NCBI GenBank assembly: GCA_964505635.1
Contig: CAZDIP010000003.1
Span: 15,313-79,312, forward strand
Source: an uncultured Candidatus Saccharibacteria bacterium
GTDB taxonomy: Bacteria; Patescibacteriota; Doudnabacteria; UBA920
Length of the DNA: 64,000 nt
Direction of reading: 5' to 3'
Part shown: positions 17,971-59,117 of the stretch, in pieces
Layout: each line of letters opens with the position of its first letter
Position numbering within the stretch: the first letter of the stretch is position 1
Translations under genes and position numbers: made by a program
Notes under the pieces: generated by a model
The model's input: the letters and a program-made list of their open reading frames with translations, nothing else
Database searches by the model: none
Told to the model about the DNA's origin: nothing

Positions 17971-17973
17971 AAT

Positions 17974-19185: not shown

Positions 19186-19197
19186 TGTAGTAAAATA

Positions 19198-32565: not shown

Positions 32566-32571
32566 CCACCT

Positions 32572-33237: not shown

Positions 33238-33242
33238 CTATA

Positions 33243-33288
33243 ACCGCGGCTTGAATGCATCCCACAAGATGACAAACAAGCCGCGGCC
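33243..33288 (+). other. 10-bp perfect inverted repeat with 26-nt loop immediately after cassette gene 2
   Basis: CCGCGGCTTG ... CAAGCCGCGG. Confidence 0.4.
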
Positions 33289-33308
33289 AAACTCTTTACT
33301 AACTTTGC

Positions 33309-33330
33309 CCGGCTTTAAGGCCGGTTTTTT
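33309..33330 (+). terminator. intrinsic terminator of the GC-rich cassette; the hairpin spans the stop codon of the convergent EEP gene
   Basis: CCGGC-TTTAAG-GCCGG followed by TTTTTT. Confidence 0.5.
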
Positions 33331-39152: not shown

Positions 39153-39763
39153 GGAACCTGCTTATTTCTTTTACGGCAAATAGCCAACCCCGGATGCAAG
39201 GGCAAGGTAACCAATTCGTGTTCTTGCGTCTGCTTGCTTAACTCAAAAATAGCTTTATAGCCATCGCCACAATAACCGCTTTCGGCAAAATGTTGGTTTT
39301 TTGGGTAAGCATCATGCAATAAAATAATCCCGTCTTGCTTGACTAAAGGAAAAAATGATTCAAAATCTTTTCTTACCGCCTGCTGACTATGATCCGCATC
39401 TATAAACAACATGTCAATAATTAAATTTCTTTCTTTTGCTTCCTTAGCAAAATTTTCGGTACTTCCGCAATAAAATTCGGTTTTTGGAGAATCTTGCATA
39501 TAATCACCCGATTTCTTAACAACATCTACTCCAATTAATTTTTCAGAAACTAAAGGCACCATACGGTTAAAGAGCCGGCACTTGTAAAGCCCAAGCTCAA
39601 CGTAAACTTTAGGCTTTAATGCTTTGGCTAAACTGGCAATAATGTCTTCGTGCACTAAATCTTGTTGACTTTTACCCAAATTCCTTACTTTAGATAAAAT
39701 CTCCTGAAGCCTAAGAATAATAATTTCTTTTTTCATATAACAGAAGCGGTTTGTTTTTGCCAC
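39137..39763 (-). CDS. class I SAM-dependent O-methyltransferase (TylF/MycF or CmcI-like)
   Basis: IGVDV...LFIDADHS...GIILLHD motifs. Confidence 0.5.
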   Translation of the reverse strand: MAKTNRFCYMKKEIIILRLQEILSKVRNLGKSQQDLVHEDIIASLAKALKPKVYVELGLYKCRLFNRMVPLVSEKLIGVDVVKKSGDYMQDSPKTEFYCGSTENFAKEAKERNLIIDMLFIDADHSQQAVRKDFESFFPLVKQDGIILLHDAYPKNQHFAESGYCGDGYKAIFELSKQTQEHELVTLPLHPGLAICRKRNKQVPWEIL

Positions 39764-42396: not shown

Positions 42397-42460
42397 TTTT
42401 TGCTTATTTTTTAGATTAAAATATCTACTAAATAATATCACTTTCTAAAAAATTCTACTA

Positions 42461-42489
42461 TTGACAAATGTTGTAATTTTTGATATAAT
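42461..42489 (+). promoter_or_regulatory. exact consensus sigma70 promoter with extended -10 (TTGACA-N17-TGaTATAAT)
   Basis: TTGACA at 42461-42466, a 17-nt spacer ending in TGA, and TATAAT at 42484-42489. Confidence 0.45.
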
Positions 42490-42539
42490 ATGTAGTTTTC
42501 AGTTGAAATTCCAATATTATATTAGAGGAGGATGCAATT

Positions 42540-43160
42540 GTGGAGTTGAGAAGAAGGTTGGAGAGGGTTATCCTTGAAAACCCGATGTTTGAGTGGGACT
42601 GGAGAAAGTCTCGTGAGCAGCGGCGAGCTGTACACGAACTTTTTTCCACGCCAATACCTCCCAGCGCAAACCCCAAAGGTGGAGTGAGCCGAGAGGTCTA
42701 CTACGGCTTCAAGGAAGGCTGCGCTACAGCAAACGCGGACATGGTCGTCTGCACCCGCCTTGAAACCGGTGAGTGCGCTGTCCTGGCACTTCATAGGGAC
42801 CCAGGCACACCGTTTGGCGGGGTATGGGATATGGGCGGCGGGGCAATCCTCGCCTACCAGGCAATCGCTGATTGCCTAAAAGCCAAATCCCAAAAAGAAA
42901 CCGGTCTCACCCTAGAGCCCGAGGCGCTGTTAGGCTGCTACCGCAACGACGCGCCCGACATGGCGTCAAGCGTCATCGCGCTGTGCTACGTTGCCACAGC
43001 ACCAGTGCAGCAGCTTCAATCAGTGGTTGCCGGGGACGGCAACCACAAGTGGCAATTTTTCACTTTGGCAGACCTGGAGAATCTGCCAGCGAACCAGACC
43101 TACTGGTATGCCATGTATGTCTGGCGCAAGGTCTTAGAGGCCGCGCCACGCGTCCTCTAA
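42540..43160 (+). CDS. NUDIX-fold-like protein with degenerate Nudix box, GTG start, GC-rich foreign-like gene
   Basis: SD GAGGAGG lies 7 nt before the GTG. AVLALHRD...FGGVWDMGGGAILAYQAIADCLKAKSQKETGL follows the Nudix pattern vLLvqR..G.W.lPGG.vE.GE...A.REl.EEtGl, but with the REx2EE glutamates replaced. HKWQFF sits at the usual C-terminal Trp position. GC is about 57%. Confidence 0.4.
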   Translation: MELRRRLERVILENPMFEWDWRKSREQRRAVHELFSTPIPPSANPKGGVSREVYYGFKEGCATANADMVVCTRLETGECAVLALHRDPGTPFGGVWDMGGGAILAYQAIADCLKAKSQKETGLTLEPEALLGCYRNDAPDMASSVIALCYVATAPVQQLQSVVAGDGNHKWQFFTLADLENLPANQTYWYAMYVWRKVLEAAPRVL

Positions 43161-43183
43161 ATCAACAACCCCAAGCAACAAAA

Positions 43184-43218
43184 GGCCGACGCTTTCAGCG
43201 CCGGCCTTTCTCATTTTT
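43184..43218. terminator. GC-rich intrinsic terminator after cassette 2, likely bidirectional (it also follows fcl)
   Basis: GGCCGACGC-TTTCA-GCGCCGGCC followed by TTTCTCATTTTT. Confidence 0.5.
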
Positions 43219-43225
43219 AAAATTT

Positions 43226-44164
43226 TTATACCTGATTTTTTATATACCAGTCTATAGTCTTTTTTAGGCCTTCGGCCAAACCAGTTTTAGCTCTAAACCC
43301 AAAACCTTTTGCTGCGCGCGAGACATCGGAAACCCTTCTCAAAGCCCCCTCAGGCTTGGTTTTATCCCACACCAATTTTCCTAAAAAGCCAACATGTCTG
43401 GCAATAGTTTCCGCCAAAATTTTTATTTTTTCTTCTTTGCCGCTGCCTATATTTACAGGCTCGGGGTCTTCATATTTTTCAGCGGCGAGTACAGTAGCCC
43501 TAGCCGCGTCTTCCACATACAAAAATTCCCTGGTTGCCTTGCCGCTGCCATACATGACTATTTCCTCTGTGCCGCTGTTTTTTGCCTCAATAAATTTCCT
43601 TATAAGCGAGGCTACCACATTGGCATGGGCTAAATCAAATTCATCGCCCGGACCGTACATATTAGTGTACAGCAAATTTATACCCGTAAACTTATGCTGA
43701 AGCCTATAGGCTAAAATTTGGGCGGCTAATAATTTTTTGGAAAGCCCGTAAGAAGCATTGCCCGCTTCGGGCAGTCCATTCCAAAAATTTTCTTCCTTAA
43801 ATGGGATACTGGTATGCTCGGGGTAACTGCTGACGGTACCGCCGATTAAAATTTTCTTTACCCCTTCCTTATATGCGCTATCTATAAGGTGCAGACCCAT
43901 AACCGCGTTGTCGTAAAAAACTTCAGCCGCGTGCTCTAAATTATACTTAACGCCGTCAAAATTGGCAGCCAGATGAATAACCAAGTCCTGGCCTTTTACT
44001 GCATAGCGGCAATTAGCCGGAACCCTTAAATCCAGCTGAGAAGACCTTGGACGGTCAATATTTTTTTTTGGCACGCCGCGCCTAAGCAATTCCTGATATA
44101 CATGAGAGCCTAAAAACCCATGGCCGCCGGTTAAAAGTATTTTTGATTTTTTTAAATTTATCAT
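43226..44164 (-). CDS. fcl: GDP-L-fucose synthase (GDP-4-keto-6-deoxymannose 3,5-epimerase/4-reductase)
   Basis: KILLTGGHGFLGSHV, YGLSKK (YxxxK), and Fcl-like length and motif order. Confidence 0.7.
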   Translation of the reverse strand: MINLKKSKILLTGGHGFLGSHVYQELLRRGVPKKNIDRPRSSQLDLRVPANCRYAVKGQDLVIHLAANFDGVKYNLEHAAEVFYDNAVMGLHLIDSAYKEGVKKILIGGTVSSYPEHTSIPFKEENFWNGLPEAGNASYGLSKKLLAAQILAYRLQHKFTGINLLYTNMYGPGDEFDLAHANVVASLIRKFIEAKNSGTEEIVMYGSGKATREFLYVEDAARATVLAAEKYEDPEPVNIGSGKEEKIKILAETIARHVGFLGKLVWDKTKPEGALRRVSDVSRAAKGFGFRAKTGLAEGLKKTIDWYIKNQV

Positions 44165-45352: not shown

Positions 45353-46450
45353 ATGAAAATACTTTATATTATTACCCAGGCCGAGGAAGGCGGGGCACAA
45401 CAATACGTATTAACTCTGGCCAAATATTTTAAAGGCATTATTGCCGCAGGTCAGGAAGCGGACAGACTTTTTACCCAAGCCGAAAGCCTTGGCATTAAAA
45501 CCTGCGGATTAAGGCACCTTAAGCGCGAAATTAAACCTTACCATGACTTAATGGCTGTTTGGGAAATCCGCCAATTAATTAATCAGCTTAAGCCCGATAT
45601 TGTTCATTTAAATTCAACAAAAACCGGTATACTCGGGAGTTTCGCCGCCATGGGGCTTAAAACCAAAGTAGTATATACAGCCCACGGTTTTGTATTTAAC
45701 GAGGACTTACCGTTTTGGATTAAAAATTTTTATATTGCCTTGGAAAAAATTGCTTCTGACTTCAGAGACTGTATTATTTCGGTGTCTGAGTATGACAGAA
45801 ATTCAGCAATCAAACATAAAATAATTAATCCCGAAAAGTTAAAGGTGGTTTATAATGGCTTGCCGGACTTGAAATTTTACGAGGCAAAAGAAGCAAAAAA
45901 TAAATTAAGGCTGCCTTTAGATAAAATCACCGTAGGTTGCATTGCCAATTTTTACAAAACAAAAGGCTTGGACATTCTTATAAAAGCTGTTGGACAATTG
46001 CCGTCTGATGCAAAGAGCCGATGCCAAGTAATAATTTGCGGCAGCGGCCCTGAATTAGAAAATTGCAAAAACTTGATTAAAAATTTAAACTTAGAAAATA
46101 TCGTTTCTTTGCCAGGACAAATCTCCAAAGCTTATAAATACCTAAAAGCGTTTGATATTTTTGCTTTTCCTTCCCGAAAAGAGGGCATGCCTTTTGCTCT
46201 GCTAGAAGCCATGCAGGCTGCCTCGGCGATTATTACCACCAATGCAGGCGGCATCCCGGAAACTGTAAGTAACGGCGCGATAATAGTTGAAAAAGAAAAC
46301 ATCCGCGCTTTAAGCCTGGCGCTTTTGGAACTTATAAACAACCCAGCAAAACGGGAAAATTTATCCTTTGAGGCATTAAAAAGGTCAAAAATATTTTCTG
46401 AAAAAAACATGCTAGAAAGCACCTACCAAACCTATCTACACCTCTTATAA
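45353..46450 (+). CDS. glycosyltransferase family 4
   Basis: MKILYIITQAEEGGAQQYV N-terminus and the E-x7-E motif (EGMPFALLEAMQAASAII). Confidence 0.7.
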   Translation: MKILYIITQAEEGGAQQYVLTLAKYFKGIIAAGQEADRLFTQAESLGIKTCGLRHLKREIKPYHDLMAVWEIRQLINQLKPDIVHLNSTKTGILGSFAAMGLKTKVVYTAHGFVFNEDLPFWIKNFYIALEKIASDFRDCIISVSEYDRNSAIKHKIINPEKLKVVYNGLPDLKFYEAKEAKNKLRLPLDKITVGCIANFYKTKGLDILIKAVGQLPSDAKSRCQVIICGSGPELENCKNLIKNLNLENIVSLPGQISKAYKYLKAFDIFAFPSRKEGMPFALLEAMQAASAIITTNAGGIPETVSNGAIIVEKENIRALSLALLELINNPAKRENLSFEALKRSKIFSEKNMLESTYQTYLHLL

Positions 46451-46457: not shown

Positions 46458-48734
46458 TTATTTTTGATTTAACAAAATTTTAAGCTCAGCTTCCAAAGAC
46501 GGATTTTGTTTAATTAAAACATTTGCCATAGCTTCTGCTTGCAGTTTTTTTCCGGTTATAACGTAAAGCTGAATTAAATTTTTATAAGCTCCGGTATCCA
46601 ATAAATTAAGCTTAGCGGCACGCTCGTAAACCGCTATTGCGGCAATATAATCTTTATTACTTACATAATAATCCGCAAGCCAACCTAATAAACCAATAGA
46701 TTTTGGGTTATGGTCTTCGCTTAATAACTTATTGACTCTAGCTATGGCGGAATTGGTTTGACCATAAGCATTTTCAGCCACAGCCAAAGTCCACTGGGCG
46801 TCAAAATTGGTTGGGTCTGTATCAACAATATCTTTTAAAATTACCATAGCCTCTCCCGGCCTGTTTTGCCAAAGCCTGACTTCAGCTAAAAAGCTTTTTG
46901 CCTCAACTCTTTTTGGAGACAGTTCAATGGCTTTTTGCAAAGCCGATTCGACCTTGGGGCTTAATGAACCAGATTCAAAAACTTTGCTGTCCAATAAATA
47001 AACCTGTGCTAATTTTTGCCAAAAAATTGGATTATTCCCAGCTCGGCTTTCAGTTACCCTTTCTAAAGCTTTTGTCGCTTTTTCGACTACCCCACCGGCA
47101 AAGCCTGGTTTTAGTCCCGGTGTGTTTTGCCGGCCAACGGTCATAGCAAAATCAGAATACTTCATGACCGTCTCAGGAAAATCAAAGTTAGCCGAATTTT
47201 CTAAAGCCTTATTGAAATATTCACTTGCCTTAACGGGATCCACCGAAATATAAGCGTAGCCGTAATTGGTATTTTTTGAAGCGGCAGCGCCTTGTATATT
47301 ACCCACCACTACGGCATACACTGTCAGCAAGCTGCTGGCAATAAAAACAGGCATGCCGTAAACCGGCTTAAAAGACTTTTGATTCTTTTTATTTACCGGC
47401 GCTGAAAATGCAAAATCATAAACATGAGCGGAAAAAGCCAAAAGAATATAAAAAGTAAGGCTGGCGGCGATATTATCAAAAACAAATAAATTTTGAATCT
47501 GATAAACAATCAGGGCTGCAAATAAAATACAAAATTCAAACAAATTAAGATTACCGGATTTAAAAACTTGATAAATTGACCGGATAGAAAACCAAGCCAT
47601 AGCCAGGTAAGCGCCAAAGCCAAAAATTCCGGTTGTAACTAAAATTTCTAACAAATAATTATGCGGCTTGTCAAACCAGCTGCGGTCATACTGGTAAATT
47701 TCCGGGTTATGGTATTTGCTGGAAACAACCTGGTAATTTTCCGGGCCTGTTCCAAAAACCGGTCTGTCTGTGTAGCCTTTTATGGCTATTTCCCACTGAA
47801 TCAAGCGAGCGGCGCTATTGCCGTCCTTTAACCTAATAACCCGGGCAAGATTTATATTATGAGGCAGCGAACTGCCGAAAATAAATAATAAAAACCCTAA
47901 GCTCAAAAAGGCAGACAAACCCAATGAGGCAATTAATTTTTGTTTATGCCTGTGTTCAAAAATCAAATAAACAACGCCGGTTAAAAATAATCCTAAGGCC
48001 AACCCTACTACAGCGCCTCTGGTGCCGCTAAAGTATATGCCGAGTAATTGTAGGAAAGCCGCTATTAGCCACCATGCCTGTCCAAATCTTTTTCTTGATT
48101 TAACCGCGAGCAAAACGGCTAAAAACATAGGTATAATTAAAAAGCTTCCCACATAAATCGGGTTGCCAAAAGTAATGGAGGACCTGGTCGGCAAAGAAGG
48201 ATCAGGTACGACTAAAAAGTCCAAGCCTAAATTCCTCAAACCAGCAATAAATGCTTCCAACCAACCGTTGGCTGATAAATACCGCATCAGCATCCCGTAT
48301 AAAACCAAAATTACGCTTAAATTTACTAAAGACTTTAAAAATTTTGCTAAAAAATTCCCGGAAATTCTGCCAAGCATTAATAAATAAAAATAAAATAAGG
48401 TTAAATGCGCTAAATAAAATACGCCTCCCATGCGCTCAAAATTACCCCAAAGGCTTTTTATATAGTCCACCCCAAAAACTGCCGAGATTAAATTTACCAA
48501 TAAAAAAATTATAATACTGGCATTTAAAGGTTGCTTAAAATTAGGCCTTAATTCTTTTCTTATATAAAATAAGTAGGCGTAAAAAGGCAGTGCCAACTCG
48601 ACCATAACCCTAAAATAAAACGCCTTGGTGGTTACAAATGGAAAAAGCAAGTCTTTACTGACTAAAAAGGGTGTTAACAAACTCATTAACACCAATATTT
48701 TTAGCACCCAGGCACTAAATTTTTCAAACCTCAT
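46458..48734 (-). CDS. O-antigen ligase-like (Wzy_C) membrane protein fused to C-terminal TPR repeats
   Basis: Multi-TM N-terminal half with the GTRGAVVGLALGLFL Wzy_C signature. The C-terminal about 250 aa contain TPR-like repeats. Confidence 0.6.
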   Translation of the reverse strand: MRFEKFSAWVLKILVLMSLLTPFLVSKDLLFPFVTTKAFYFRVMVELALPFYAYLFYIRKELRPNFKQPLNASIIIFLLVNLISAVFGVDYIKSLWGNFERMGGVFYLAHLTLFYFYLLMLGRISGNFLAKFLKSLVNLSVILVLYGMLMRYLSANGWLEAFIAGLRNLGLDFLVVPDPSLPTRSSITFGNPIYVGSFLIIPMFLAVLLAVKSRKRFGQAWWLIAAFLQLLGIYFSGTRGAVVGLALGLFLTGVVYLIFEHRHKQKLIASLGLSAFLSLGFLLFIFGSSLPHNINLARVIRLKDGNSAARLIQWEIAIKGYTDRPVFGTGPENYQVVSSKYHNPEIYQYDRSWFDKPHNYLLEILVTTGIFGFGAYLAMAWFSIRSIYQVFKSGNLNLFEFCILFAALIVYQIQNLFVFDNIAASLTFYILLAFSAHVYDFAFSAPVNKKNQKSFKPVYGMPVFIASSLLTVYAVVVGNIQGAAASKNTNYGYAYISVDPVKASEYFNKALENSANFDFPETVMKYSDFAMTVGRQNTPGLKPGFAGGVVEKATKALERVTESRAGNNPIFWQKLAQVYLLDSKVFESGSLSPKVESALQKAIELSPKRVEAKSFLAEVRLWQNRPGEAMVILKDIVDTDPTNFDAQWTLAVAENAYGQTNSAIARVNKLLSEDHNPKSIGLLGWLADYYVSNKDYIAAIAVYERAAKLNLLDTGAYKNLIQLYVITGKKLQAEAMANVLIKQNPSLEAELKILLNQK

Positions 48735-48841
48735 AATTTTTATTTTGGCTTTAATCTTCTTTACTTATGGATTATAGCCTAACAAAAAAGTTATAACAAG
48801 CAAAACAGCCCCGCTTTGCGGGGCTGTTTGAATAACTTAAA

Positions 48842-50365
48842 TTACTGCTTTATGTAAGTTACGATTTCTTGTCCTTCGTTGACTCCTTCCAAAACTTCTA
48901 CCAAACCACCATCTGCTTCCATTCCAGTAGTCACCAAAATTTCATCGTAAGTTTTTTTCTTTGAATCTTTAATTATTCTTAAATATTTAGCATTTCCTTT
49001 TACAATCACTGCCCTTAAAGGAACAGTTAGCACAGCCTGTTTACTACCCGTTAAAATACTAATATTCGCAGTCATACCTGGCTTAATTTCACTTAATTTA
49101 TCGAGTGAAATAGTTACTTTATAATTCACAACCCCGGAAACTAGCGTAGAAGCAGGATCAACGGCCTGAACCTTGCCTACAAATTTCCTATCCACGCCAA
49201 GGGCATCAAAAGTCAATTCTACTTCCTGATCTGGCTTAATGTATGCAATATTAGCTTCGCTAATATTAGCTTCAACATGAAGATTGCCTATATCTTGCAA
49301 AACAACCAAAGCTGCCAGCGCGGTGGCTAATTGACCGGGTTTGGCGTCAACTTTGGTAATGGTGCCTTCTGCTGGCGCTCGCATTATGGTATTTTCCAAA
49401 TCAGCGGAGGCAGCCAAAACCTGGCCTTCTGCAGTTAAAATTTGAGCCTTAGCAGATTCAAGCTCAGCCGGCCTTGCTTTGGCTAACTTTAATTCTAAAT
49501 TAGCCTGGGCTGACAAAACATTGTTTTCAGCCGAGGTTATCTGTGCTTTTTGGGTCTGCAATGCCGACTCGTAAGCATTTAAATTTGTCACATAACCAGA
49601 GGCTTTAGTGTTGGGAATTTTAACAGTCCAGCTATCGTTACTGGCTGTAATAGTAGACGGAAACTGAACATATAAACCTCTGGTGCCCAAAGGCAATGGA
49701 ACAGACACGCTTGTATTAATTGTCTGATTTCCCCGATTCTCCAAACCCAAAACATAAAAACTCAAGCCTTCCTGCATTATCGTATATGTTCCTTGCTCAG
49801 TTCCGGTATAAGTTCCCGATATGGTCAGCGTGATATTATTTAAGTTGGAAGAATTAGGAATTGCTTCCAAACTGGAATTGAGCAAAGCTTTATAAGCATT
49901 ATCAACCAAAACCTGTTGTTGCCTCCTTACGTCTTCCAGGGTTTTTTGCGCATTTTCCAAAGTAACCCTGGCCACCGCCACCTCTTCGTTAGAAGAACCG
50001 TCTAACACCTTCTGGTAATTAGCCTCAGCCTGTTTTAGCGCCCCTTTAGCTTGAGTTAACCTTGCCACCTGGTCTTTTTGATCCAAAAAAGCCAAAACCG
50101 CTCCTGCCTTTACTTTATCGCCAACCTGAGCGTTAACCCGGCTGATAATTCCGCTGGTTTTAAATGCCAGAGCCAAGTCAGTCTGGCTGGTAACCTGGCC
50201 GGTCGCTAAAACTGTTTGTTTTATGTCCTGTTTCTTTACCGATTCAGACTGAATGTCGGCTATATTGCTGCCTTTGCCTTTAAAAACAAAGAACAAAATT
50301 AAAGCAAGTATTGCTATTCCAGCAATAACTTTTTTCTTTTTAAAAAAACTAAATATTTTTTGCAT
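48842..50365 (-). CDS. HlyD-family membrane fusion / efflux periplasmic adaptor protein
   Basis: N-terminal TM helix, biotinyl-lipoyl-like and coiled-coil segments (ARLTQAKGALKQAEANYQKV), and a beta-barrel C-terminus. Confidence 0.6.
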   Translation of the reverse strand: MQKIFSFFKKKKVIAGIAILALILFFVFKGKGSNIADIQSESVKKQDIKQTVLATGQVTSQTDLALAFKTSGIISRVNAQVGDKVKAGAVLAFLDQKDQVARLTQAKGALKQAEANYQKVLDGSSNEEVAVARVTLENAQKTLEDVRRQQQVLVDNAYKALLNSSLEAIPNSSNLNNITLTISGTYTGTEQGTYTIMQEGLSFYVLGLENRGNQTINTSVSVPLPLGTRGLYVQFPSTITASNDSWTVKIPNTKASGYVTNLNAYESALQTQKAQITSAENNVLSAQANLELKLAKARPAELESAKAQILTAEGQVLAASADLENTIMRAPAEGTITKVDAKPGQLATALAALVVLQDIGNLHVEANISEANIAYIKPDQEVELTFDALGVDRKFVGKVQAVDPASTLVSGVVNYKVTISLDKLSEIKPGMTANISILTGSKQAVLTVPLRAVIVKGNAKYLRIIKDSKKKTYDEILVTTGMEADGGLVEVLEGVNEGQEIVTYIKQ

Positions 50366-50406
50366 AGATTATATTATAGCCCATTTTTCAATAAATTTCA
50401 AGTCCT

Positions 50407-52644
50407 TTATTTTTTAAGCCACTTGGCCAGATCTTCCCTCAAAGTCGGATCAACCGCGATAATTTCTTCAGCTAATTGCCTTGCCTCTAGTAACTGCCCA
50501 TTAAGACCATAAGCTCTTACCAAACCAAGATAAGTATTTTTATTATTTGGCTGGGCGGTAATGGCTTCTTCATAAAGCTTTATCGCTTCGCCAAAATTAT
50601 TTCTTTGAGTGTGGTAATCAATTAACAGCTGAAATTCGTTTAAGGTTTCCAGTTTATAGCCTAAATCCAAGGCCTTAGAAGCATATGTATAAGCTTCTTC
50701 AAGCCTGTTTAGCCTGTAATTTACCCAAGCCACCTGCCAAGCGCTCTGAGAGTAATTAGGATAAATTTTATTATACTCTTCTGCTAAAACCAAAGCCTGC
50801 TCAAGTTCGTTTATTGCCACCTTAAACTGGATGTTTAAGTAATAAATTTCCGGCCTGTTTGGAGCTAAAAATCCCGCTCTTTCCAAATCTGACAAAGCAG
50901 CCAAGTCTAACTTTTGCCCCAAAGTGACGGATTGAAAATATCGCAAAGCCGCTAAATAATACCAATTAACCGGATTGGTGGGGTTTTGCTCGGCAGTCTT
51001 TTTGCCAAAATCAATTGCCGCGGTTTGGATATCTTTAACTAATTGCAAAGACTGGGGCTCTTGGGTTTGAGAAATACTTAATGCCATAGAACTGAACTTT
51101 AAAAATAATTCGGAATTGTCATAATTTAAATCCATGGCGATGGCCTTTTTAAAAAAATCAAACGAAAGCTTAAAGTCAGAACCGGTTTTGCTTGTATAGG
51201 CGGTTAGTCCAAAATTAATATTTTTAGCCAAAACCATTGGTAAAATATTGGTCAGATAAATTAAGTAAAAAACAGCGGCCAAGCCGGAATAAAACACTAC
51301 GCCCGGCTTGACTGAAACAAGCTTTGCTTTATTCGGCTGCTTTTCAACATTCTCGCGGCTTTCTAAAAAATACGCGGTGAAAGCTAAGAAAACAAAACTG
51401 CTTATGCTGGCTGAAACCGTGTCAAACACAAAAAAGTTTTGAACCTGATACGCGGCCCAGGCAAAAACAAACACCGCTGCGCCGCCTAAGGATAGAAAGT
51501 TTTTTTTGTAAGCCGCTATCAACGCCCAAAAAGCCGTCCCAATAAAAAATAAAAACGCCAAAAGCCCCAAAACACCCCCTGTAACCAGGATTTCCAAAAA
51601 ATAATTATGCGGCTTGTCAAACCAGCTTTTATCAAACGAATGTTGCTGTGGGTTATAGTACTTGTTGGCAACAAAGTAATAATTTTCCGAACCAATCCCT
51701 AAAAACGGCCGGTCTAAAAAACCCTGTAACGCCGCCTGCCACTGCACAAGCCTGGCTTTGGCATTACTGTCGGAAAAATTAAACAATCTGCCTGACCCAA
51801 AACCGCCTGAAGAAAAATTTTGAACCGCTAATCCCCCGGCCGTCACCGCCACAATTACCACCAAACCCAGAGCGCCAATTCTTTTTTTTATATCCCAATT
51901 TGCATTGAACAAATAAAGTATCAATCCTAAAAACAGGCCGGCCAAAAGCCCTAAAAAGGCTCCCCGCGTGCCGGTTAAAAATATTACAGTCAGTATTAAA
52001 AAGGAGGCTGTATAATACCAATATCTGCTTCTTAAAATTTTAGAGGTAATAGCAAAATATAAAGCAAACCCTAAAGGCAATACAAGATAGCTGGCCAAAA
52101 AAATGGGATTACCCAAAGTAGATGAAACCCGGCTTGGCAAAGACATGTCGGGCGACAGTGTTACCCAGCCAAGCTTGCCAAAAATACCGTTGATACTAAC
52201 CCCCACGGCAACCCAAACTAAAAACTTTAAAAACCTTGTAAAGTAAAAAGGGTCTTTTTTGCTAATTAAAAGTAAATAAAAATATAAAAGCAATAAATGG
52301 GCTAAATAATATATACCGCCCATTCTTTCCAAATTACCCCAAAAACTTCTGTGTGCGTTTACTCCAACTAACATAGAAACCAAGCTCAAACAAAAAAAGG
52401 CCAGCAAGGAAGCGGTTAAAGGGTTGGTTATTTTTGGACGAAATTGCTTTTCTGTAAATAAAAAAAATATATAAAAAGGCAGCGCCAGCTCTATGGCAAT
52501 CCTGAATAAAAAAGCCTTGCTGGTTACAAACGGAAACAGTAAATCTTTAAAATTAACCAAAGGAACCAACAAAGACAGGCAAACCAAAAAAAAGAAAATT
52601 TTAAATAGCCAAGAATTATTTTTGTCAAAAAAAGTTGCCGTCAT
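50407..52644 (-). CDS. O-antigen ligase-like (Wzy_C) membrane protein fused to C-terminal TPR repeats (paralog of 46458..48734)
   Basis: LTGTRGAFLGLLAGLFLGL Wzy_C signature plus a C-terminal TPR region. The architecture is colinear with the 758-aa paralog. Confidence 0.6.
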   Translation of the reverse strand: MTATFFDKNNSWLFKIFFFLVCLSLLVPLVNFKDLLFPFVTSKAFLFRIAIELALPFYIFFLFTEKQFRPKITNPLTASLLAFFCLSLVSMLVGVNAHRSFWGNLERMGGIYYLAHLLLLYFYLLLISKKDPFYFTRFLKFLVWVAVGVSINGIFGKLGWVTLSPDMSLPSRVSSTLGNPIFLASYLVLPLGFALYFAITSKILRSRYWYYTASFLILTVIFLTGTRGAFLGLLAGLFLGLILYLFNANWDIKKRIGALGLVVIVAVTAGGLAVQNFSSGGFGSGRLFNFSDSNAKARLVQWQAALQGFLDRPFLGIGSENYYFVANKYYNPQQHSFDKSWFDKPHNYFLEILVTGGVLGLLAFLFFIGTAFWALIAAYKKNFLSLGGAAVFVFAWAAYQVQNFFVFDTVSASISSFVFLAFTAYFLESRENVEKQPNKAKLVSVKPGVVFYSGLAAVFYLIYLTNILPMVLAKNINFGLTAYTSKTGSDFKLSFDFFKKAIAMDLNYDNSELFLKFSSMALSISQTQEPQSLQLVKDIQTAAIDFGKKTAEQNPTNPVNWYYLAALRYFQSVTLGQKLDLAALSDLERAGFLAPNRPEIYYLNIQFKVAINELEQALVLAEEYNKIYPNYSQSAWQVAWVNYRLNRLEEAYTYASKALDLGYKLETLNEFQLLIDYHTQRNNFGEAIKLYEEAITAQPNNKNTYLGLVRAYGLNGQLLEARQLAEEIIAVDPTLREDLAKWLKK

Positions 52645-53219
52645 TACAGCTTGCCCTCCCGATTAATCCTCTCCAAAGCTTCCTTTAGTCCCCCGCTCTC
52701 AGTTTTTAAAATTCCCTGGCTTAAAATATATTTTGCGTCTTCTATGTTTCCGGCAAAGCCTTGGGAATACATTTCCGCTAAAGACAAATAAGCGGAGACA
52801 TCCGTTGGGTCTACTTCCAAAAGCTTTAAAAATGAGCCTTCTGCCTGGTCATATTTTTTCTGCGATAAATACAGATGTCCTAAATTATTCCAAATCACGG
52901 TATTTATGGGGCTGATTTCTCCGGCTTTTTTGTAAGCTTCTTCGGCCTTTATATAGTCCCCCAAAGCCTGGTAAGCCACTGCCAAGTTTTTGTAGGCTTC
53001 AAAATTATTTTTGTCATTCTTAACAATTTCCAAATCCCTTTTTATCCCGTTTTCCAACTTTTCTAAAAGACCTGGGTTATTCTGCTTTAAGTCCTCTGTC
53101 CGCTGACTTTTAGTCTGGTTGTTTAGCTGCTGGATTTTATATTCCGGAATGTATAAAAATACTCCTAAAAACAATACCAATAAAACAACAGTAATTATAC
53201 TATAAATTTTTTTATTCAT
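52644..53219 (-). CDS. TPR-repeat protein with N-terminal membrane anchor
   Basis: A single TM helix followed by AYKNLAVAYQALGDY-type TPR repeats. Confidence 0.55.
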   Translation of the reverse strand: MNKKIYSIITVVLLVLFLGVFLYIPEYKIQQLNNQTKSQRTEDLKQNNPGLLEKLENGIKRDLEIVKNDKNNFEAYKNLAVAYQALGDYIKAEEAYKKAGEISPINTVIWNNLGHLYLSQKKYDQAEGSFLKLLEVDPTDVSAYLSLAEMYSQGFAGNIEDAKYILSQGILKTESGGLKEALERINREGKL

Positions 53220-53253
53220 ATTGTAATTTTACAAAAACCGGGGGTTAAAAGCA

Positions 53254-53287
53254 AACCCCTTCCCTTTGAAAACAAAGGGAAGGGGTT
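53254..53287 (-). terminator. strong hairpin downstream of the large surface protein gene
   Basis: AACCCCTTCCCTTT-GAAAAC-AAAGGGAAGGGGTT (14-bp stem). Confidence 0.5.
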
Positions 53288-53342
53288 GCTTGTTTGATTT
53301 TTGCTAAACGCTCAAAACTAAGCGCTGAAGCACTCTTAAAGA

Positions 53343-56300
53343 CTAATTCAAGGAAAGACCCTGAGAGTCAGTAGGAATAGTTCTTACATAGCGGCCATTG
53401 GTCCAGTCATCCGAGCTGCTTGACCCAGCGGTGTCGCTGTGAGAAGTAGCGGACATATCGGACCAAATGAAGTTATAAGCTGCGGTGGCGGCTTCCATGT
53501 CGTTACCAACGTTGTTGGTATCGTCCTGGTCACGCAATTGCTGCGCGGCAGCCAAAGTGCTTAAGTCACCGGTAACCGCGGCGGTGTCAGTCGTGGCAAT
53601 AGAAGTCGTGACCGAATCGCCGGTATCAGCGCCAGCGACCGTGGCTTTGAAGTCATAGGTCTTGGAGCTGCCGGAAGTAATAAGTTCTTCCGAGTTAAAG
53701 GTGATATCAACAGTAACCGAGCCTGCAGCATAAGTAGCTGAGCTGGTTACGGTTAAGTTGCTTCCGCCCTGCGGGGCAATGGCAAAGGAAGACAAAGACA
53801 CGCCGGTAGTGGAAGAGCTGGTGAAGGTAATATGCTTAAGAGCAATATCATTATCAACAGCAGTCACTTTAAAGCGGTACAAAGTCTGGGTGCCGTTACC
53901 CAAAGAGCTGGTCATAGCCACGGTTTCTACTTTCGGCTGGCTCTTTCTTAAGACAACATAGCTGCCTACATAAGAACCGCTGGAAGGAGCAGTCAAAGTG
54001 GTAGAACCGGAAGTGCCGCGAACCTCAAAGTTGTTGCTGCCGTCAAGCCAGACAGCGAATTCATCGCCGCTGTCAGCACCATTGGAAATAGTGTTAAGGT
54101 CAGCTTTAACAGTTAAGTTCTTGCTGGCATCCTTGCCGATTATAAAGTCGGCGGTCATGCCGGTAAAGTCAGCATAGCCTTCAATGGTGCCGGACGGAGT
54201 CAAAGACACCGGACCTGCGACCAAGGTGCTGCCGTCATACAAGTAGAGGGCAGTAATGTCGTCGGCTATATTGGCTGCCGAAGCGGCTGTGGAGCTGGCT
54301 GTGGCAACCGCAATGCGGGCTTTGGTCAGCTTAAGCTCTTCGTTAACCGCGGTAAAGCGGATTTTGCCCAAAGTTACACCGGTTTTACCAGCAGTAACAA
54401 TGCGGGCGTCAGTAACATCCTGTTCGTTGTTACCAGCTGTGGCGACCGTAATGGTGCCGGCGCCGGTAATGGTAATGGCGGTACCAACCGTAGTGGTGGT
54501 GCTGCCGTTAACCGGATAGCTGGTGCTATCGGTTACGCTGTTACCGTCAGGATCAACCGCAGTAATGCTGGAAGAAGCAATTTTCCATTTGATAACATTG
54601 CTGGAGTTGGCGGAGTTTGAAATGGTCATTTTAACCACCAAAGTCTTGCTGCTACCTTTCGGAACTACCCAGTTAAGACCGTTGAAGGTCATAGTACCGG
54701 CAGTGGAAGGAGATTTAGTCTGGCCGATTTTGGTCGCGCCGTCGTAAAGCTCAACAGTTACCACGTTGTCAGACACATAAATTGTGCTGGCAGAGGCGTT
54801 GGTAGTGCTGCCATCAGCCATGGTGGCTGCGGCCGCGGAAGCTATCATACCGGTTAAGGTAAGGTCGGTGACTTTTACGTCAGCCGCGGTAGAAGCGGTA
54901 AAGACATAGCCAGCTGCTTCAACCATGGTGCTGCCTTTGACAAAGGACTTGGAAGTCGGAGTAGCGGCCAAAGCAACAGTCAAAGAAGGAACCCTAACTG
55001 TCATTTGGTTACCTGAAATGTCAGAGGTAGGCACTATGTCAGTGGAGGTTAAGAAGGTGTTGTTGTCAGTGTTCTTAACGTCGTTGGAAGTTAAGCTGTC
55101 AACATCCAAAGTGGCGCCAATTACGTCGCCGGAAGTAACATCGGAATTGTTGGCAACATCCAAAGTAACCTTATAGGTTTTGGAAGTACCGGCGGCCAAA
55201 AAGACGTCTTCCGTAAAGGTAAGAGTCTGAGAGGTGGCGCTGCCTGTGCCGGACAAATCCTGAGGCCCGAAAACTACGGCGCCGGTTGTGGCGTCTACGA
55301 CTTTTACGTCGGTGTAGTTAGGGGTGGTATTGTCGTTAAAATCAGCAGTACCGCTGCCGCCGTTGTTGAACACAAAGGCCAACTGGCGGATTTCCAAGTT
55401 GTTCTGGGCAGCCATGGTGAAGTTGAAAACTTCAACATCTTTGCCGTTCTTGGCAATATCCTTGGCAGACGGACCGTTAAAGGTAATGGTCAACTGACCA
55501 CCTTCAACGTAGCTGTAAGAACAGTCGCCGGAAGAAGAAGTACAGCTGTCGCCGTCATAATCCGTAGAGGTAACAGCAGTGCCAAAACCATAGGTCTGGC
55601 CTACCGCGAACAAGTCGGTAGATTCTTCTAAGTAGAATTTGACGGTTTCGGAAGAACCCGTGCGGGAACCGCCGGAAACGTTGGCGTAGACTTCAAAAGT
55701 CTTGGTATCGCCCTTGGCTAAGGCAAAGTTAACTTCAAAGTTAGCTTTGTCTTCGCTGTCTAAGGCAGCTACGGTGGCTAAGGTGTTGCCGGCCTGCTTT
55801 AAGACCAAATTGGTCAAGTTAGAGCTGGCAACAGCGCCGCCCTGGTAAAGAGAAATTCTCTTAACCACGACGTCTTCGGAAGAGCTGGCGGCCAAGGTAA
55901 AGGAACCTACTCTGACATTCTGCTCACCAACTTTAGGGTTGGTAATGCTGCCGGTTTTGGCAATAGTGACAGTACCGGATGAAACACCGGCGAGAGTCAT
56001 GCTGTTGCCGCTGGCAGTGCCGCTGGCCTGGGTTGAACCAAGCATAACGGAAGTCACCATTAACTGGTGAACATTGCCCGCTGTGGCGGAAGAATAAATA
56101 TCAGCCAATACGTCCATGGTAATGGATCCGCCGGCCGGAACATTCACGTTAAGGCCGGAGAACACCGCTTCGTTGGTGGAAGAGTTAACACTGCGTCCAG
56201 AGGTTAATCTGGAAGCGCCCTGGTAAAGGTAAACGTTGGTCAGGTCCGAAGTGGAACCCGCGCCGGTGCGTTTAACTGTAACCTGGTTAACTGTGGCAGC

Positions 56301-57137
56301 TGAAGTGCCGCCGTTGTAAACCACAAACTTAAGGAAGTTAACATTGGTGGCTCCTTTGGGAACAGTGGAAGGCGGAGTCTGGTTAGAGGCCGCGCCGACG
56401 GTGACTGAACCCGGAGTCGGAGAAGGATTCTGGGGGTTAGAAGTCCAAGAAGGAGAAAGTTGTCCTAATTGGCGGGCGACCATTACGCCGGAAACCGGCC
56501 AGGTCTGAGTGGCGGCGTTAGCCGGCACTGCCTTGCTAAAGGAATAGCCCCAGGAATTGAAAACTTCGTTGCTCGGAATGCCAAGCAAGCTGTTGGCGCC
56601 TACTAAGAAATAGGTTTTATTACCGTTATAGTTGAAATAGGTAATAACACCGGTTCTTAAGGCAGCAGTGGTGTTTTCAATGTTGGAATCGGCCGACAAG
56701 AAGGAAACATCGCCGCTCATGGCGTTAGCAAAGCTAAAACCAAGCCCGGTGAAAACTTCTTGGGACACGAAACCGGCTTTTTTGCCGTTGGTTATAAGGT
56801 AGCAAGTACCTTGGTCAGGGGATCTATCGGAACAAATGATAGAACCATCCTGAGGGGGAATAAAGCCAGCCGGGTCAACCGGTAAGGCTAAATCGTCGGC
56901 GTTAGCAGTCTGTACGGTGGCAAACGAGTTGAAACCGTAAGACAAGAAAGCGCCGCCGGAAGTGTAGGCGCGGCGGGTATTGCTGGAAGTAATCATCCAG
57001 ACAGTACCGTCAGAAGTAATGACATTGGTTCCGGCCGGGTGGGCAGCAGCTTGTGCTACCAACGGAGCAGCCAAAGACATGGTCATTGCAACCGCAGATC
57101 CTACAGCAAAGAGTTTCTTTGCAACAGAATTTTGCAT
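53343..57137 (-). CDS. giant secreted Ser/Thr/Gly-rich cell-surface protein (S-layer or adhesin-like), 1264 aa
   Basis: Signal peptide MQNSVAKKLFAVGSAVAMTMSLAAPLVAQAAA. Very high T/S/G/A/V content with repeated beta-rich (Ig-like) segments. It is preceded by a long AT-rich leader of about 580 nt. Confidence 0.6.
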   Translation of the reverse strand: MQNSVAKKLFAVGSAVAMTMSLAAPLVAQAAAHPAGTNVITSDGTVWMITSSNTRRAYTSGGAFLSYGFNSFATVQTANADDLALPVDPAGFIPPQDGSIICSDRSPDQGTCYLITNGKKAGFVSQEVFTGLGFSFANAMSGDVSFLSADSNIENTTAALRTGVITYFNYNGNKTYFLVGANSLLGIPSNEVFNSWGYSFSKAVPANAATQTWPVSGVMVARQLGQLSPSWTSNPQNPSPTPGSVTVGAASNQTPPSTVPKGATNVNFLKFVVYNGGTSAATVNQVTVKRTGAGSTSDLTNVYLYQGASRLTSGRSVNSSTNEAVFSGLNVNVPAGGSITMDVLADIYSSATAGNVHQLMVTSVMLGSTQASGTASGNSMTLAGVSSGTVTIAKTGSITNPKVGEQNVRVGSFTLAASSSEDVVVKRISLYQGGAVASSNLTNLVLKQAGNTLATVAALDSEDKANFEVNFALAKGDTKTFEVYANVSGGSRTGSSETVKFYLEESTDLFAVGQTYGFGTAVTSTDYDGDSCTSSSGDCSYSYVEGGQLTITFNGPSAKDIAKNGKDVEVFNFTMAAQNNLEIRQLAFVFNNGGSGTADFNDNTTPNYTDVKVVDATTGAVVFGPQDLSGTGSATSQTLTFTEDVFLAAGTSKTYKVTLDVANNSDVTSGDVIGATLDVDSLTSNDVKNTDNNTFLTSTDIVPTSDISGNQMTVRVPSLTVALAATPTSKSFVKGSTMVEAAGYVFTASTAADVKVTDLTLTGMIASAAAATMADGSTTNASASTIYVSDNVVTVELYDGATKIGQTKSPSTAGTMTFNGLNWVVPKGSSKTLVVKMTISNSANSSNVIKWKIASSSITAVDPDGNSVTDSTSYPVNGSTTTTVGTAITITGAGTITVATAGNNEQDVTDARIVTAGKTGVTLGKIRFTAVNEELKLTKARIAVATASSTAASAANIADDITALYLYDGSTLVAGPVSLTPSGTIEGYADFTGMTADFIIGKDASKNLTVKADLNTISNGADSGDEFAVWLDGSNNFEVRGTSGSTTLTAPSSGSYVGSYVVLRKSQPKVETVAMTSSLGNGTQTLYRFKVTAVDNDIALKHITFTSSSTTGVSLSSFAIAPQGGSNLTVTSSATYAAGSVTVDITFNSEELITSGSSKTYDFKATVAGADTGDSVTTSIATTDTAAVTGDLSTLAAAQQLRDQDDTNNVGNDMEAATAAYNFIWSDMSATSHSDTAGSSSSDDWTNGRYVRTIPTDSQGLSLN

Positions 57138-57719
57138 TTGTTAAATTTTACTCCATTTAAGCAATTGATTATTCAATTGAGACAATCAATTTTGTGCTTA
57201 AATTTTTAATTAATTTTACATCTGATTTTAATACCAACACTTAAGGCTCTAGAGATCTCTTAAATATGGTTTTAAAAAGGATGATTATTGAAATCCTATA
57301 TTAAGACTAAAACGCTAACCTATCGACCAAAAACATTACATGCGTTCCTGAAACAGGAAAACAAACATAATATTTTAAGCTAGCTGGCCTATAAAATAGG
57401 CTCAATAATTAATATTAGACATATTGCCTATGCGTTTTCCTGAGTTTGCAATATGTATGAGGTAAGACGTCTTAATTTTAAGTCTGTTACAACAAAAAAT
57501 TAAGCGACCAGGCTTTTTTGTAAAATACAAAAAGCCAGGGAATATTTATATTTTTTACCTTAAATAAGACAAAAAATAACAATAAACATTCCCTGACTTT
57601 TAACTTTACTGAAAAAAGTAAAATTTATACATGTGTGAGTATTTCAGAATTATATCAGTAATTTTTAATATTATAAAATAAGATATCAATTTTGTCAAAT
57701 GCTAATATTTACATTCTAC

Positions 57720-57793
57720 TGGTCGGGATGCTGGGAATTGAACCCAGTCTACCTGCTCCCAAAGCAGGCGTACTACCGGTATACTACATCCCG
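57720..57793 (-). tRNA. tRNA-Pro (anticodon TGG), CCA encoded
   Basis: The reverse complement folds as: acceptor CGGGATG/CATCCCG; D arm GTAT-ACCGGTA-GTAC; anticodon stem CCTGC/GCAGG with loop TTTGGGA; T arm CTGGG-TTCAATT-CCCAG; terminal ACCA. Confidence 0.8.
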
Positions 57794-57864: not shown

Positions 57865-58701
57865 TCAATGCAAAATTAAGTTATTCCAGTCACCGGCAAA
57901 TTTTTCTATTCCCCTATCGGTCAATTCATGCTCAATATTATACTCTTGCCAGGGATTTTTTAAACTTATTTCCTCAAATTCTATTGGTTTCAACTTTCCG
58001 CTTTCAGTCTTCAACTGACTAACTAAAGTCGGCATCCCGGCTTGTTTCCACTCAGCCAAAACCTTTACTGGCACGGTAACAATATCGCTCCCCATTTCTA
58101 AACACTGGACCAAATGGTTTAAATTTCTTATACTTGCAGACAAAACCTCAACATGTCCGTCGCCTGTTTTATACATTTTCAAGACATTCTTTATAAAATC
58201 CACCCCCCTTTCTCCCTTGTCATCCAAACGTCCTATGAAGGGCGATAAAAACACATCACCTTTTTTAGCGCCTAAACTTGCTGCGTAAACAGCCGCGGCC
58301 TGACTTTGGCTAAAAACCAAAGTCATATTAACTTTAATGCCTTGTTTTAGGCTTAACTCCGCGGCTTTTAAACCCTCAATGGTCGTCGGGTATTTAATAT
58401 GGGCGTTAGGAATCCAGGCGTTAAATTCTTTTGCCTGTCTAAACATTTCGTCGGCCAAAGTTTCCCTGTCCGCGTAAACCTCCACTGAAACCGATCCGTC
58501 TGGAATTAAAACAGATACTTCTTGTACGACTTTTTTATAAAAATCTAGGAGTTCGCTGTGAGTAAATTTTTTTCCGGTGGTCTGGGGGTTTTTGGCAATC
58601 AGCGAAGGATTAGTGGTCTGCCCGTCTAAAAAACCTAAAATATCCAAAGCTTCTTTGGTTTCTTTCGGATCTCCGCTGTCTAAAAAAATTTTAGTTTTCA
58701 T
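57865..58701 (-). CDS. transaldolase / fructose-6-phosphate aldolase family protein
   Basis: IFLDSGDPKE and TTNPSLIAK motifs typical of the Tal/Fsa family. The 278-aa length implies a C-terminal extension. Confidence 0.65.
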   Translation of the reverse strand: MKTKIFLDSGDPKETKEALDILGFLDGQTTNPSLIAKNPQTTGKKFTHSELLDFYKKVVQEVSVLIPDGSVSVEVYADRETLADEMFRQAKEFNAWIPNAHIKYPTTIEGLKAAELSLKQGIKVNMTLVFSQSQAAAVYAASLGAKKGDVFLSPFIGRLDDKGERGVDFIKNVLKMYKTGDGHVEVLSASIRNLNHLVQCLEMGSDIVTVPVKVLAEWKQAGMPTLVSQLKTESGKLKPIEFEEISLKNPWQEYNIEHELTDRGIEKFAGDWNNLILH

Positions 58702-59117
58702 AAATCAATATGATAATATCTTAAAAACTCCTGATATTTTTTTAAAGCGCTATTCCAAAAGTCTTTTTTTAAAGGCTCATGGGGCGATGTGGTGTCTATC
58801 TGCTGCAAAATCAAACCTTTTAATTCTTTATATAAATTTTTCCAGTCATTGGAATAATAAAGCGGCAGTTTGTCAAACTTATTTAAAAAAATCCTTTGCT
58901 GGGCAACTAAGCTGCTGGGAAATAGATCAAAAAACAAGCCTAAATCTCTCCTTAAATATTGAAAGGTACTACCTTTGTCCGTAGAGCGGCCAAATTCAAA
59001 AACTTTAAGCTTATTTTTTAAACTTTCATACTGCTGTTCTGTAGGCTCTATATTAGCCTTAATTGTGGCAATCTCTATTGAACTTAAAACCGAGTTTATT
59101 TCTTCTTTTGAAGGCAT
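58698..59117 (-). CDS. hypothetical protein
   Basis: The ORF is embedded in a same-strand run and overlaps its neighbour by 4 nt. There are no recognisable motifs. Confidence 0.3.
   Translation of the reverse strand: MPSKEEINSVLSSIEIATIKANIEPTEQQYESLKNKLKVFEFGRSTDKGSTFQYLRRDLGLFFDLFPSSLVAQQRIFLNKFDKLPLYYSNDWKNLYKELKGLILQQIDTTSPHEPLKKDFWNSALKKYQEFLRYYHIDL

Follow-up and report, generated by a model that had tools for sequence, protein, structure and literature searches.

A 64,000-nucleotide stretch of a Doudnabacteria genome (lineage UBA920; contig CAZDIP010000003.1 of assembly GCA_964505635.1, positions 15,313–79,312), called the window in the following, carries the gene of a candidate surface-layer (S-layer) protein that appears to be coupled to a machinery for protein O-glycosylation. 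The locus would thereby be the Patescibacteria counterpart of the S-layer glycosylation (slg) loci of Gram-positive bacteria; we infer the glycosylation itself, and we give this reading a probability of roughly 0.6. The module consists of five minus-strand open reading frames (ORFs) at 46458–57137, which encode, in the order of transcription, a Ser/Thr-rich surface protein of 1264 aa (BIG), a 191-aa tetratricopeptide repeat (TPR) protein, a 745-aa protein that joins a Wzy_C domain to TPRs (the proximal paralog), a HlyD-like adaptor of 507 aa, and a second Wzy_C-TPR protein of 758 aa (the distal paralog). All five had been named, with their domains, in an original prediction made from the DNA letters alone, and all five were confirmed, the ORFs by the ORF list. 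The same prediction proposed a surface-protein O-glycosylation or S-layer module; this was borne out as far as a predicted S-layer family, a conserved gene linkage and a TPR domain predicted to lie outside are concerned, while the novelty seen in the TPR pairing and the part assigned to the adaptor did not hold.

The linkage between the two main components was assessed by scanning GTDB species representatives, seeded on conserved Wzy_C-TPR motifs. The scan yielded 68 loci, the ORFs of which were searched with family hidden Markov models, and 40 of them were considered informative, their upstream sequence being 5 kb or longer. Of these 40, 29 have a BIG homolog that precedes Wzy_C-TPR on the same strand, an adjacency far above chance and the co-occurrence that had been suggested as a check beforehand. 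Co-occurrence was tested from the Wzy_C-TPR side only, because the BIG alignment holds no stretch conserved enough to serve as a search seed. Look-ups of individual homologs likewise returned the order BIG, small TPR gene, one or two Wzy_C-TPR genes and a GT4-family glycosyltransferase gene, and the arrangement recurred in several classes, with different types of anchor and in different surroundings of flanking genes. It was present in Azambacteria (loci L064, L071, L073, and L074) and in Magasanikiibacteriota (L063), where Wzy_C-TPR is immediately followed by GT4 homologs (E 1e-56 to 1e-65) in the reverse orientation; divergent GT4 homologs were also found in Doudnabacteria-type loci. A lineage with an anchor of the PG_binding_1 type (L008, L080) was linked too, with ClpB/HtrA as flanks and PglF/PglE/PglC-like glycan genes. 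The linkage tracks the body of the S-layer protein, and not the type of anchor or a particular glycan, which argues against a role restricted to an anchor polymer and for the protein as the substrate.

Some of the neighbours differ from locus to locus. Among distant loci that depart from the common arrangement, some have other large or secreted Ser/Thr-rich proteins close by. A protein of ~925 aa with an LCAT domain is encoded just downstream of Wzy_C-TPR in three related loci (L003, 15508–18282; L004, 10522–13296; L006, 14013–16805, this copy also with SpaA_4) and was not seen in the window. In two others, which have a single Wzy_C-TPR gene, this gene is separated from the S-layer gene by an oppositely oriented class A beta-lactamase-like gene (PF13354; L005, 8770–9804; L007, 8788–9837).

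BIG starts with a signal-like hydrophobic segment (signal peptide at about residues 1–31) and has a pI of 4.5. Its composition is dominated by Thr (13.4%) and Ser (12.3%), together 25.7%, followed by Ala (11.2%), Val (9.3%), and Gly (9%), with 0.3% Cys; the G+C content of the gene, ~0.51 against a background of ~0.38, is raised because of this T/S/A/V-rich composition. Sequence searches of Pfam and the PDB gave no match. An AlphaFold2 (AF2) model built on 66 homologs reached a pLDDT of 89 and described an all-beta array, with low confidence at the linker only. Residues 32 to ~228 form a threefold-repeat domain of three beta-beta-alpha repeats (internal similarity z 3.5–6.3), which is followed by a P/S/T-rich linker at ~228–245 (SPSWTSNPQNPSPTPGS) and by the body, a long array of all-beta immunoglobulin (Ig)-like domains; the C-terminus carries a conserved W-S-D...H...D-W motif. 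Foldseek hits to the model were set aside as generic Ig/MG-domain arrays (PrgB, alpha-2-macroglobulin, integrins), with nothing specific to S-layers among them. The family is Patescibacteria-wide and of near-constant length (~1150–1270 aa). While homologs retain the body, the N-terminal ~20% is exchanged for a coiled coil with PG_binding_1, for SLH, or for another repeat. Exchangeable wall anchors of this kind are a hallmark of wall-anchored S-layer proteins. A preprint of 2024 (10.1101/2024.05.28.596244) predicts a Patescibacteria S-layer protein family that forms p6 S-layers, finds homologs among the top-expressed secreted proteins of a metatranscriptomic study, and includes in its table of predicted S-layer proteins a Doudnabacteria entry of 1264 aa. 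Judged by these family features and by the preprint’s prediction, BIG probably is an S-layer-type protein.

A site identical to the sigma-70 consensus (TTGACA-17-TATAAT, 12/12), a promoter by consensus match, lies ~530 nt 5′ of the BIG start, just 3′ of tRNA-Pro. The BIG stop codon is directly followed by a strong intrinsic-terminator-like hairpin, which suggests that the transcript is largely monocistronic. Within the leader of ~530 nt, we noted a further long hairpin with a T-run at ~57606–57525 (region 57515–57793, minus strand), possibly a terminator or attenuator, a small RNA's 3′ end, or a 5′ structure with a stabilising effect; an Rfam search of the leader returned tRNA-Pro and sub-threshold noise only. 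Downstream of BIG, the 191-aa protein has one N-terminal transmembrane (TM) helix and three to four TPR repeats. The stop codon of its gene overlaps the start of the proximal Wzy_C-TPR gene by 1 nt (TAATG), which suggests coupled expression of the two, and at least 13 related loci have small TPR ORFs of 195–250 aa at this place between the BIG and Wzy_C-TPR genes, which resembles that of WsaA in slg loci. Far from the module (12983–13948, minus strand), a secreted protein of 321 aa was observed that consists of a Lys/Glu/Ala-rich coiled coil with the C-terminal tail SSTPPSTTPTPTPTVTPTPTPTGAQ and has no Pfam match. It could be a second glycosylation substrate by analogy, because Thr/Pro low-complexity tails are typical O-glycosylation sites in other bacteria.

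Both large membrane proteins scored above the gathering threshold of Wzy_C (PF04932) in the profile search that the original prediction had proposed (distal, E 1.3e-20; proximal, E 3.6e-24; 74.2 and 85.7 bits, cut-off 31.7). They carry C-terminal TPRs, share 33% identity, and belong to an abundant Patescibacteria family of ~740 aa, the members of which are 35–50% identical within the class and ~27% across the phylum. The AF2 model of the proximal paralog (pLDDT 92, pTM 0.90) comprises a 12-TM WaaL-type core, helices 9 and 10 of which are joined by a large loop, then a Lys/Arg-rich cytoplasmic linker (430–446), a 13th TM helix (447 to ~473), and a TPR superhelix (491–744). As all loops assigned to the cytoplasm are Lys/Arg-rich, the model and the positive-inside rule together place the catalytic loop and the TPR domain on the extracytoplasmic side, the 13th helix bringing the TPR outside; a topology prediction to place this region had been proposed beforehand as a check. 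In a Foldseek search, WaaL (7tpg_B; E 2.4e-5; TM-score 0.62, target-normalised) was the sole solved structure matched by the TM core, and the best structural matches of the TPR region include the TPR domains of OGT and SPINDLY. A PDB search with a single TM-domain sequence gave nothing useful; WaaL 7tpg was recovered by the family profile only (E 2.1e-8), with the GTRGA, R..W, GxG, and (A/P)HN motifs aligned, and no solved PglL-type structure was matched in that profile search. The residues R227, R298, and H346 were invariant in 58 sequences (both paralogs and 56 homologs), and N347 is an invariant residue as well. A position-by-position match to the residues published as essential in WaaL/PglL, R215/R288/H338 and R224/R298/H349 (PMC3643930), is plausible. 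By sequence and modelled fold, Wzy_C-TPR is a WaaL-type lipid-linked-glycan transferase, a classification that does not in itself identify the acceptor.

Filing the proteins as PglL was rejected because PglL_A (PF15864) was not among the Pfam matches at E ≤ 0.01 for either paralog; a profile search against PglL was among the checks proposed earlier. PglL_A, a motif flanking Wzy_C, was devised to tell PglL apart from WaaL, but PilO/TfpO are also without it (PMC3643930), so its absence does not exclude O-oligosaccharyltransferase (O-OTase) activity. GxG was rejected as a PglL-specific marker as well, the aligned WaaL 7tpg having the same motif (GvG). TIGR04370, a repeat-unit polymerase model, was matched with 28.1 and 23.5 bits, under its 40-bit cut-off. 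A grouping with either O-OTases or ligases, once offered as the deciding point, is not decisive, because WaaL is matched and PglL_A is not while PglL and WaaL are acknowledged as one protein family (PMC3643930). In a neighbour-joining tree, the two copies of the window fell into different lineages. Most single-copy genomes have kept the lineage of the distal copy, and the proximal copy is more divergent, with clear orthologs in close relatives only. Since either lineage can be the sole copy of a genome and both keep the catalytic residues, a difference in specificity is favoured over a split into polymerase and transferase; the paralogs probably differ in site or glycan specificity.

The glycan genes form a cluster of ~24 kb that reaches down to 21050. 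The original prediction described a complete assembly line upstream of the module. Its genes are real (WbaP-type initiator, Wzx-type flippase, glycosyltransferases, and methyltransferases), but their position is transcriptionally downstream, at lower coordinates. The cluster also holds RmlC, GT1/GT2/GT4 and Glyco_trans_1_2 proteins, FkbM-type and other methyltransferases, a UDP-GlcNAc 2-epimerase, and NAD-dependent epimerases/dehydratases. Among the 50 ORFs scanned, no Wzz or other polysaccharide co-polymerase (PCP), LCP ligase, ATP-binding cassette (ABC) transporter, or lipopolysaccharide (LPS)-specific gene was found, and no separate multi-TM Wzy candidate appeared among the ORFs scanned or TM-checked, smaller ORFs being outside the scan. 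Two segments (32001–34000 and 42001–44000) stand out by a G+C content of 0.46–0.47 vs. ~0.37, and a gap at 42441–43226 has neither a convincing minus-strand ORF nor an Rfam RNA gene at the gathering threshold.

In the mechanism that we propose, the glycan would be built on undecaprenyl phosphate by the WbaP-type initiator and the cytoplasmic glycosyltransferases and methyltransferases, a chemistry suggested by the genes present in the cluster, and the Wzx-type protein would flip it to the outer face of the membrane. There the Wzy_C-TPR enzymes, with the WaaL-type loop and the TPR pointing outward according to the model and the positive-inside rule, would transfer it en bloc to Ser/Thr (or Tyr) residues of the newly secreted 1264-aa protein. 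Likely sites would be the P/S/T-rich linker between anchor and body, or S/T-rich loops of the Ig-like domains. The fused TPR and the translationally coupled small TPR protein may capture and position the protein acceptor, by analogy with WsaA and WsfB of slg loci.

The adaptor matched TIGR01730 (E 1.3e-41; 142.6 bits vs. a cut-off of 94.9) and MacA (5nik, E 2.6e-18) and has YknX-type Pfam domains. It contains one N-terminal TM helix and an insertion of ~110 aa (residues ~150–262) between the two helices of the alpha-hairpin, which in Gram-negative homologs is the docking position for the outer-membrane channel. The gene has a promoter-like site (50401–50373, 11/12) and a terminator-like hairpin (48829–48803, minus strand) of its own. 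In the window and in 10 related loci the adaptor adjoins Wzy_C-TPR, always directly upstream of the distal-type copy, and in none of these was an ABC ATPase motif found within 10 kb of it. An integral partnership, as put forward in the original prediction, was at first attractive for the latter reason, but was downgraded after two further results. The seven adaptor loci with a placeable, near-full-length distal-type copy fall with the window into one sub-clade, which includes one adaptor-less locus, and thus represent roughly one evolutionary event. Moreover, 57%-identical orthologs in two sister genomes (L081, L082) head operons of adaptor, ABC ATPase, and two MacB_PCD-FtsX genes, away from Wzy_C-TPR. 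High conservation of the adaptor family throughout the class points the same way. Most likely, the adaptor is a MacB-type ABC exporter component that has been relocated, and not a member of the glycosylation module, its place there being probably incidental. It resembles the YknXYZ/MacAB exporters in its domains, in its match to MacA, and in having orthologs at the head of a full operon; it differs from them in that it is found, in the window and the 10 loci, more than 10 kb from any ABC ATPase and between or before Wzy_C-TPR genes, and in the insertion within the hairpin of the window’s adaptor. In both sister genomes (L081, 4002–12078; L082, 4191–12034) three genes come before the adaptor operon: one pilin-like with N_methyl, one unannotated of 470–490 aa, and one MazE-like.

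Several points weigh against a coupling of the S-layer gene to O-glycosylation. Sequence and fold match the WaaL ligase and cannot separate a ligase from an O-OTase or a polymerase, and with a Wzx flippase and no other Wzy candidate found, one paralog could be the polymerase. TPR domains also scaffold polysaccharide export machines (BcsC, PgaA, AlgK). The 29 linked loci are not independent cases, because most of them belong to one class with broadly conserved synteny, and the linkage is not universal, as it was not seen in Falkowbacteria (L009), in an SLH-type locus (L079), or in 11 of the 40 scanned loci. A cluster look-up gave no accession, and the identity of BIG with the 1264-aa entry of the preprint, or with UniProt A0A1F5NRV7 (also 1264 aa), is unconfirmed. 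No experiment showing a glycosylated Patescibacteria S-layer protein was found, and the collection of papers that was searched contained none on protein O-glycosylation or O-OTases in Patescibacteria.

In the main rival reading, the Wzy_C-TPR proteins would polymerise and/or ligate a cell-wall or capsular glycopolymer that is Wzx/Wzy-dependent, with the S-layer neighbourhood resulting from the clustering of envelope genes or from a polymer that acts as the wall ligand of the S-layer anchor. There would be a parallel in csaAB, beside the S-layer genes in Bacillus anthracis. This alternative, which we regard as unlikely but as one to be taken seriously, agrees with the presence of a WbaP-type initiator and a Wzx, to which the ORFs scanned or TM-checked add no further multi-TM protein of the Wzy kind, with the weak, sub-threshold matches to TIGR04370, and with the fact that WaaL, which ligates glycan to glycan, is alone in matching by structure and by sequence; the threefold-repeat N-terminal domain of BIG could also bind a wall polymer. 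However, the linkage is kept with a PG_binding_1 anchor, a peptidoglycan binder that requires no accessory polymer, and it is kept where the neighbouring glycan genes are wholly different. Wzy polymerases diverge with each repeat unit, and the high conservation of the Wzy_C-TPR family is unlike this pattern. Neither an LCP-type ligase nor a Wzz co-polymerase was found among the ORFs scanned. In one relative (L007), Wzm/Wzt-like genes are present (ABC2_membrane and Wzt_C matches, faint to weak), yet Wzy_C-TPR is retained; as a pathway of this type would make a periplasmic polymerase unnecessary, the retention counts for transfer to the S-layer protein.

A division of labour, with one paralog polymerising the glycan, the other transferring the chain, and, in the sub-lineage of the window, the MacA-like adaptor assisting the distal paralog in a co-polymerase-like or conduit role, seems improbable. 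A Wzx pathway normally needs a polymerase, both lineages have been retained in many genomes, and the constant place of the adaptor ahead of the distal-type copy, with no ABC ATPase within 10 kb, would fit such an arrangement. While these observations speak for it, either lineage can occur alone, the paralogs do not differ in their TPR domain or in the invariant residues, and the adaptor evidence is undercut by the orthologs in standard MacB-type operons and by the single sub-clade, with its adaptor-less locus, to which the placeable adaptor loci belong. We consider it very improbable that the module glycosylates type IV pilins, in the manner of TfpO/PilO, instead of or besides the S-layer protein. 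Type IV pilus genes (PilB-like T2SSE, PilC-like T2SSF, PilM, and two small single-TM ORFs; 16909–20949, minus strand) do lie right beside the glycan cluster, at its WbaP end, an ORF that is pilin-like and has an N_methyl motif (5898–6446, minus strand) is located ~10 kb beyond them, and known Wzy_C O-OTases often target pilins (PMC3643930). Pilin glycosylation, which had been part of the earlier proposal, nevertheless found no target beside the module: no pilin gene adjoins Wzy_C-TPR, either in the window or in any related locus that was inspected, the conserved neighbour being BIG, and a regular-expression search of the six frames of the window did not detect the canonical G-F-T/S-L-I-E pilin motif.

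The idea of an O-glycosylated S-layer protein can also be put in a stronger form, in which Wzy_C-TPR is a distinct, phylum-wide O-OTase class whose TPR recognises the acceptor, which is dedicated to the S-layer protein, and which comprises two ancient paralogs for different glycans or sites. We advance this form tentatively, as a possibility with the odds against it. If it were true, the S-layers of ultra-small episymbionts would be obligate glycoproteins, and recognition of host and phage would be set by the variable glycan clusters; in the sub-lineage of the window, the distal paralog may then also have gained the orphaned MacA-like adaptor as a partner.

Table 1. Coordinates of the module and of neighbouring features in the window.
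Feature	Position	Strand	Basis
BIG, candidate S-layer protein, 1264 aa	53343–57137	-	ORF, composition, AF2 model, family
Small TPR protein, 191 aa	52644–53219	-	N-terminal TM helix and TPR matches
Proximal Wzy_C-TPR paralog, 745 aa	50407–52644	-	Pfam Wzy_C and TPR, AF2 model
MacA/YknX-type membrane-fusion adaptor, 507 aa	48842–50365	-	TIGR01730, MacA 5nik
Distal Wzy_C-TPR paralog, 758 aa	46458–48734	-	Pfam Wzy_C and C-terminal TPR
GT4-family glycosyltransferase, 365 aa, divergent	45353–46450	+	Pfam; adjoins Wzy_C-TPR gene
Lipid-linked glycan assembly cluster	21050–45281	-	Pfam matches
Wzx-type flippase	39733–41097	-	Pfam
GT2+GT1 fusion	36468–39152	-	Pfam
WbaP-type initiating phosphoglycosyl transferase (Bac_transf)	21050–22351	-	Pfam
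Sigma-70 consensus site, 12/12	57670–57698	-	sequence match only
Terminator-like hairpin after BIG	53254–53287	-	15-bp stem, 8 G-C pairs
tRNA-Pro(tgg)	57720–57793	-	Rfam

Beyond the BIG end of the module, genes of central metabolism are found (transaldolase, LOG, GlpX, transketolase). The small gene in the interval between the LOG-family gene and transaldolase (58698–59117, minus strand) differs among relatives: it is a 139-aa ORF without Pfam match in the window, a PDDEXK_3 protein in L005, and a bAvd/23S_rRNA_IVP four-helix-bundle protein in L002. bAvd-like genes are recurrent around the related loci (L002, 70–426 and 3544–3930; L003, 218–595; L006, 18086–18466); bAvd-like proteins go with diversity-generating retroelements, which are frequent in Patescibacteria.

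A large part of bacterial diversity belongs to the Patescibacteria, or Candidate Phyla Radiation (CPR), which live attached to host cells, and their S-layers have been seen by cryo-electron microscopy. The conserved cassette of S-layer, TPR, Wzy_C-TPR, and GT4 genes leads to a testable prediction, namely that the CPR S-layer is an O-glycoprotein, for which both the enzyme and the substrate are named. Surface glycans would then be prime candidates for host attachment, for phage receptors, and, because the adjacent glycan genes differ between lineages, for strain-level variation. O-OTases with a built-in acceptor-binding domain could, in addition, serve glycoengineering.

Among known systems, WaaL of Cupriavidus metallidurans (PDB 7TPG) is resembled in fold and in the four aligned motifs. 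WaaL has 12 TM helices and no TPR; lipid A-core, to which it transfers, would not be expected in Patescibacteria, and the host of the present locus is a monoderm without LPS. A glycosyltransferase fused to an acceptor-recognising TPR superhelix is also found in the eukaryotic TMTC1–4 O-mannosyltransferases and in OGT, an analogy only, as their catalytic folds are unrelated to Wzy_C/WaaL and no homology is claimed. The bacterial O-OTases PglL, TfpO (PilO), PglS, and TfpM are, like the proteins described here, Wzy_C proteins with conserved Arg/Arg/His residues, and they use a lipid-linked donor on the outer face of the membrane, as is proposed for the window; their genes usually adjoin those of their targets, and the acceptor sites are often situated in flexible low-complexity linkers (PMC3643930). 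A context of this type was found in the window, where the candidate substrate gene BIG lies upstream and LPS-specific genes were absent from the 50 ORFs scanned. The proteins of the window differ from PglL-type enzymes in being without PglL_A, in having an extra TM helix and a large C-terminal TPR domain, and in their likely target, which is an S-layer protein and not a pilin.

The slg loci are closely mirrored. In these, the S-layer genes targeted for glycosylation are monocistronic and independent of the slg cluster, with sgsE and sgtA close to their clusters, and both the Geobacillus and the Paenibacillus systems start with a WbaP homolog (PMC2943079). The candidate S-layer gene of the window, its role being a predicted one, is near the glycan cluster and has promoter-like and terminator-like signals of its own, and a WbaP-type initiator, methyltransferase genes, and rhamnose-pathway genes are common to both. 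In Geobacillus stearothermophilus, wsaA encodes a 168-aa TPR protein beside wsaB, the gene of a Wzy_C O-OTase, while WsfB of Paenibacillus alvei is a Wzy_C protein with a C-terminal TPR (PMC2943079). The window has both forms, the TPR beside and the TPR fused to Wzy_C, and their pairing, held at the outset to be no textbook arrangement, thus has a precedent. The systems differ in that the window has a Wzx-type flippase where Gram-positive clusters have Wzm/Wzt ABC transporters, in its two Wzy_C-TPR paralogs, and in its sequence-unrelated S-layer family with a Patescibacteria-specific Ig-like array; glycosylation is proven there and inferred here, and WsaB and WsfB were compared by their published description. 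As an arrangement already known from Gram-positive bacteria is mirrored, specialists will see in the locus an extension of a known system and not a surprise, but one that leads into a phylum that is itself new ground.

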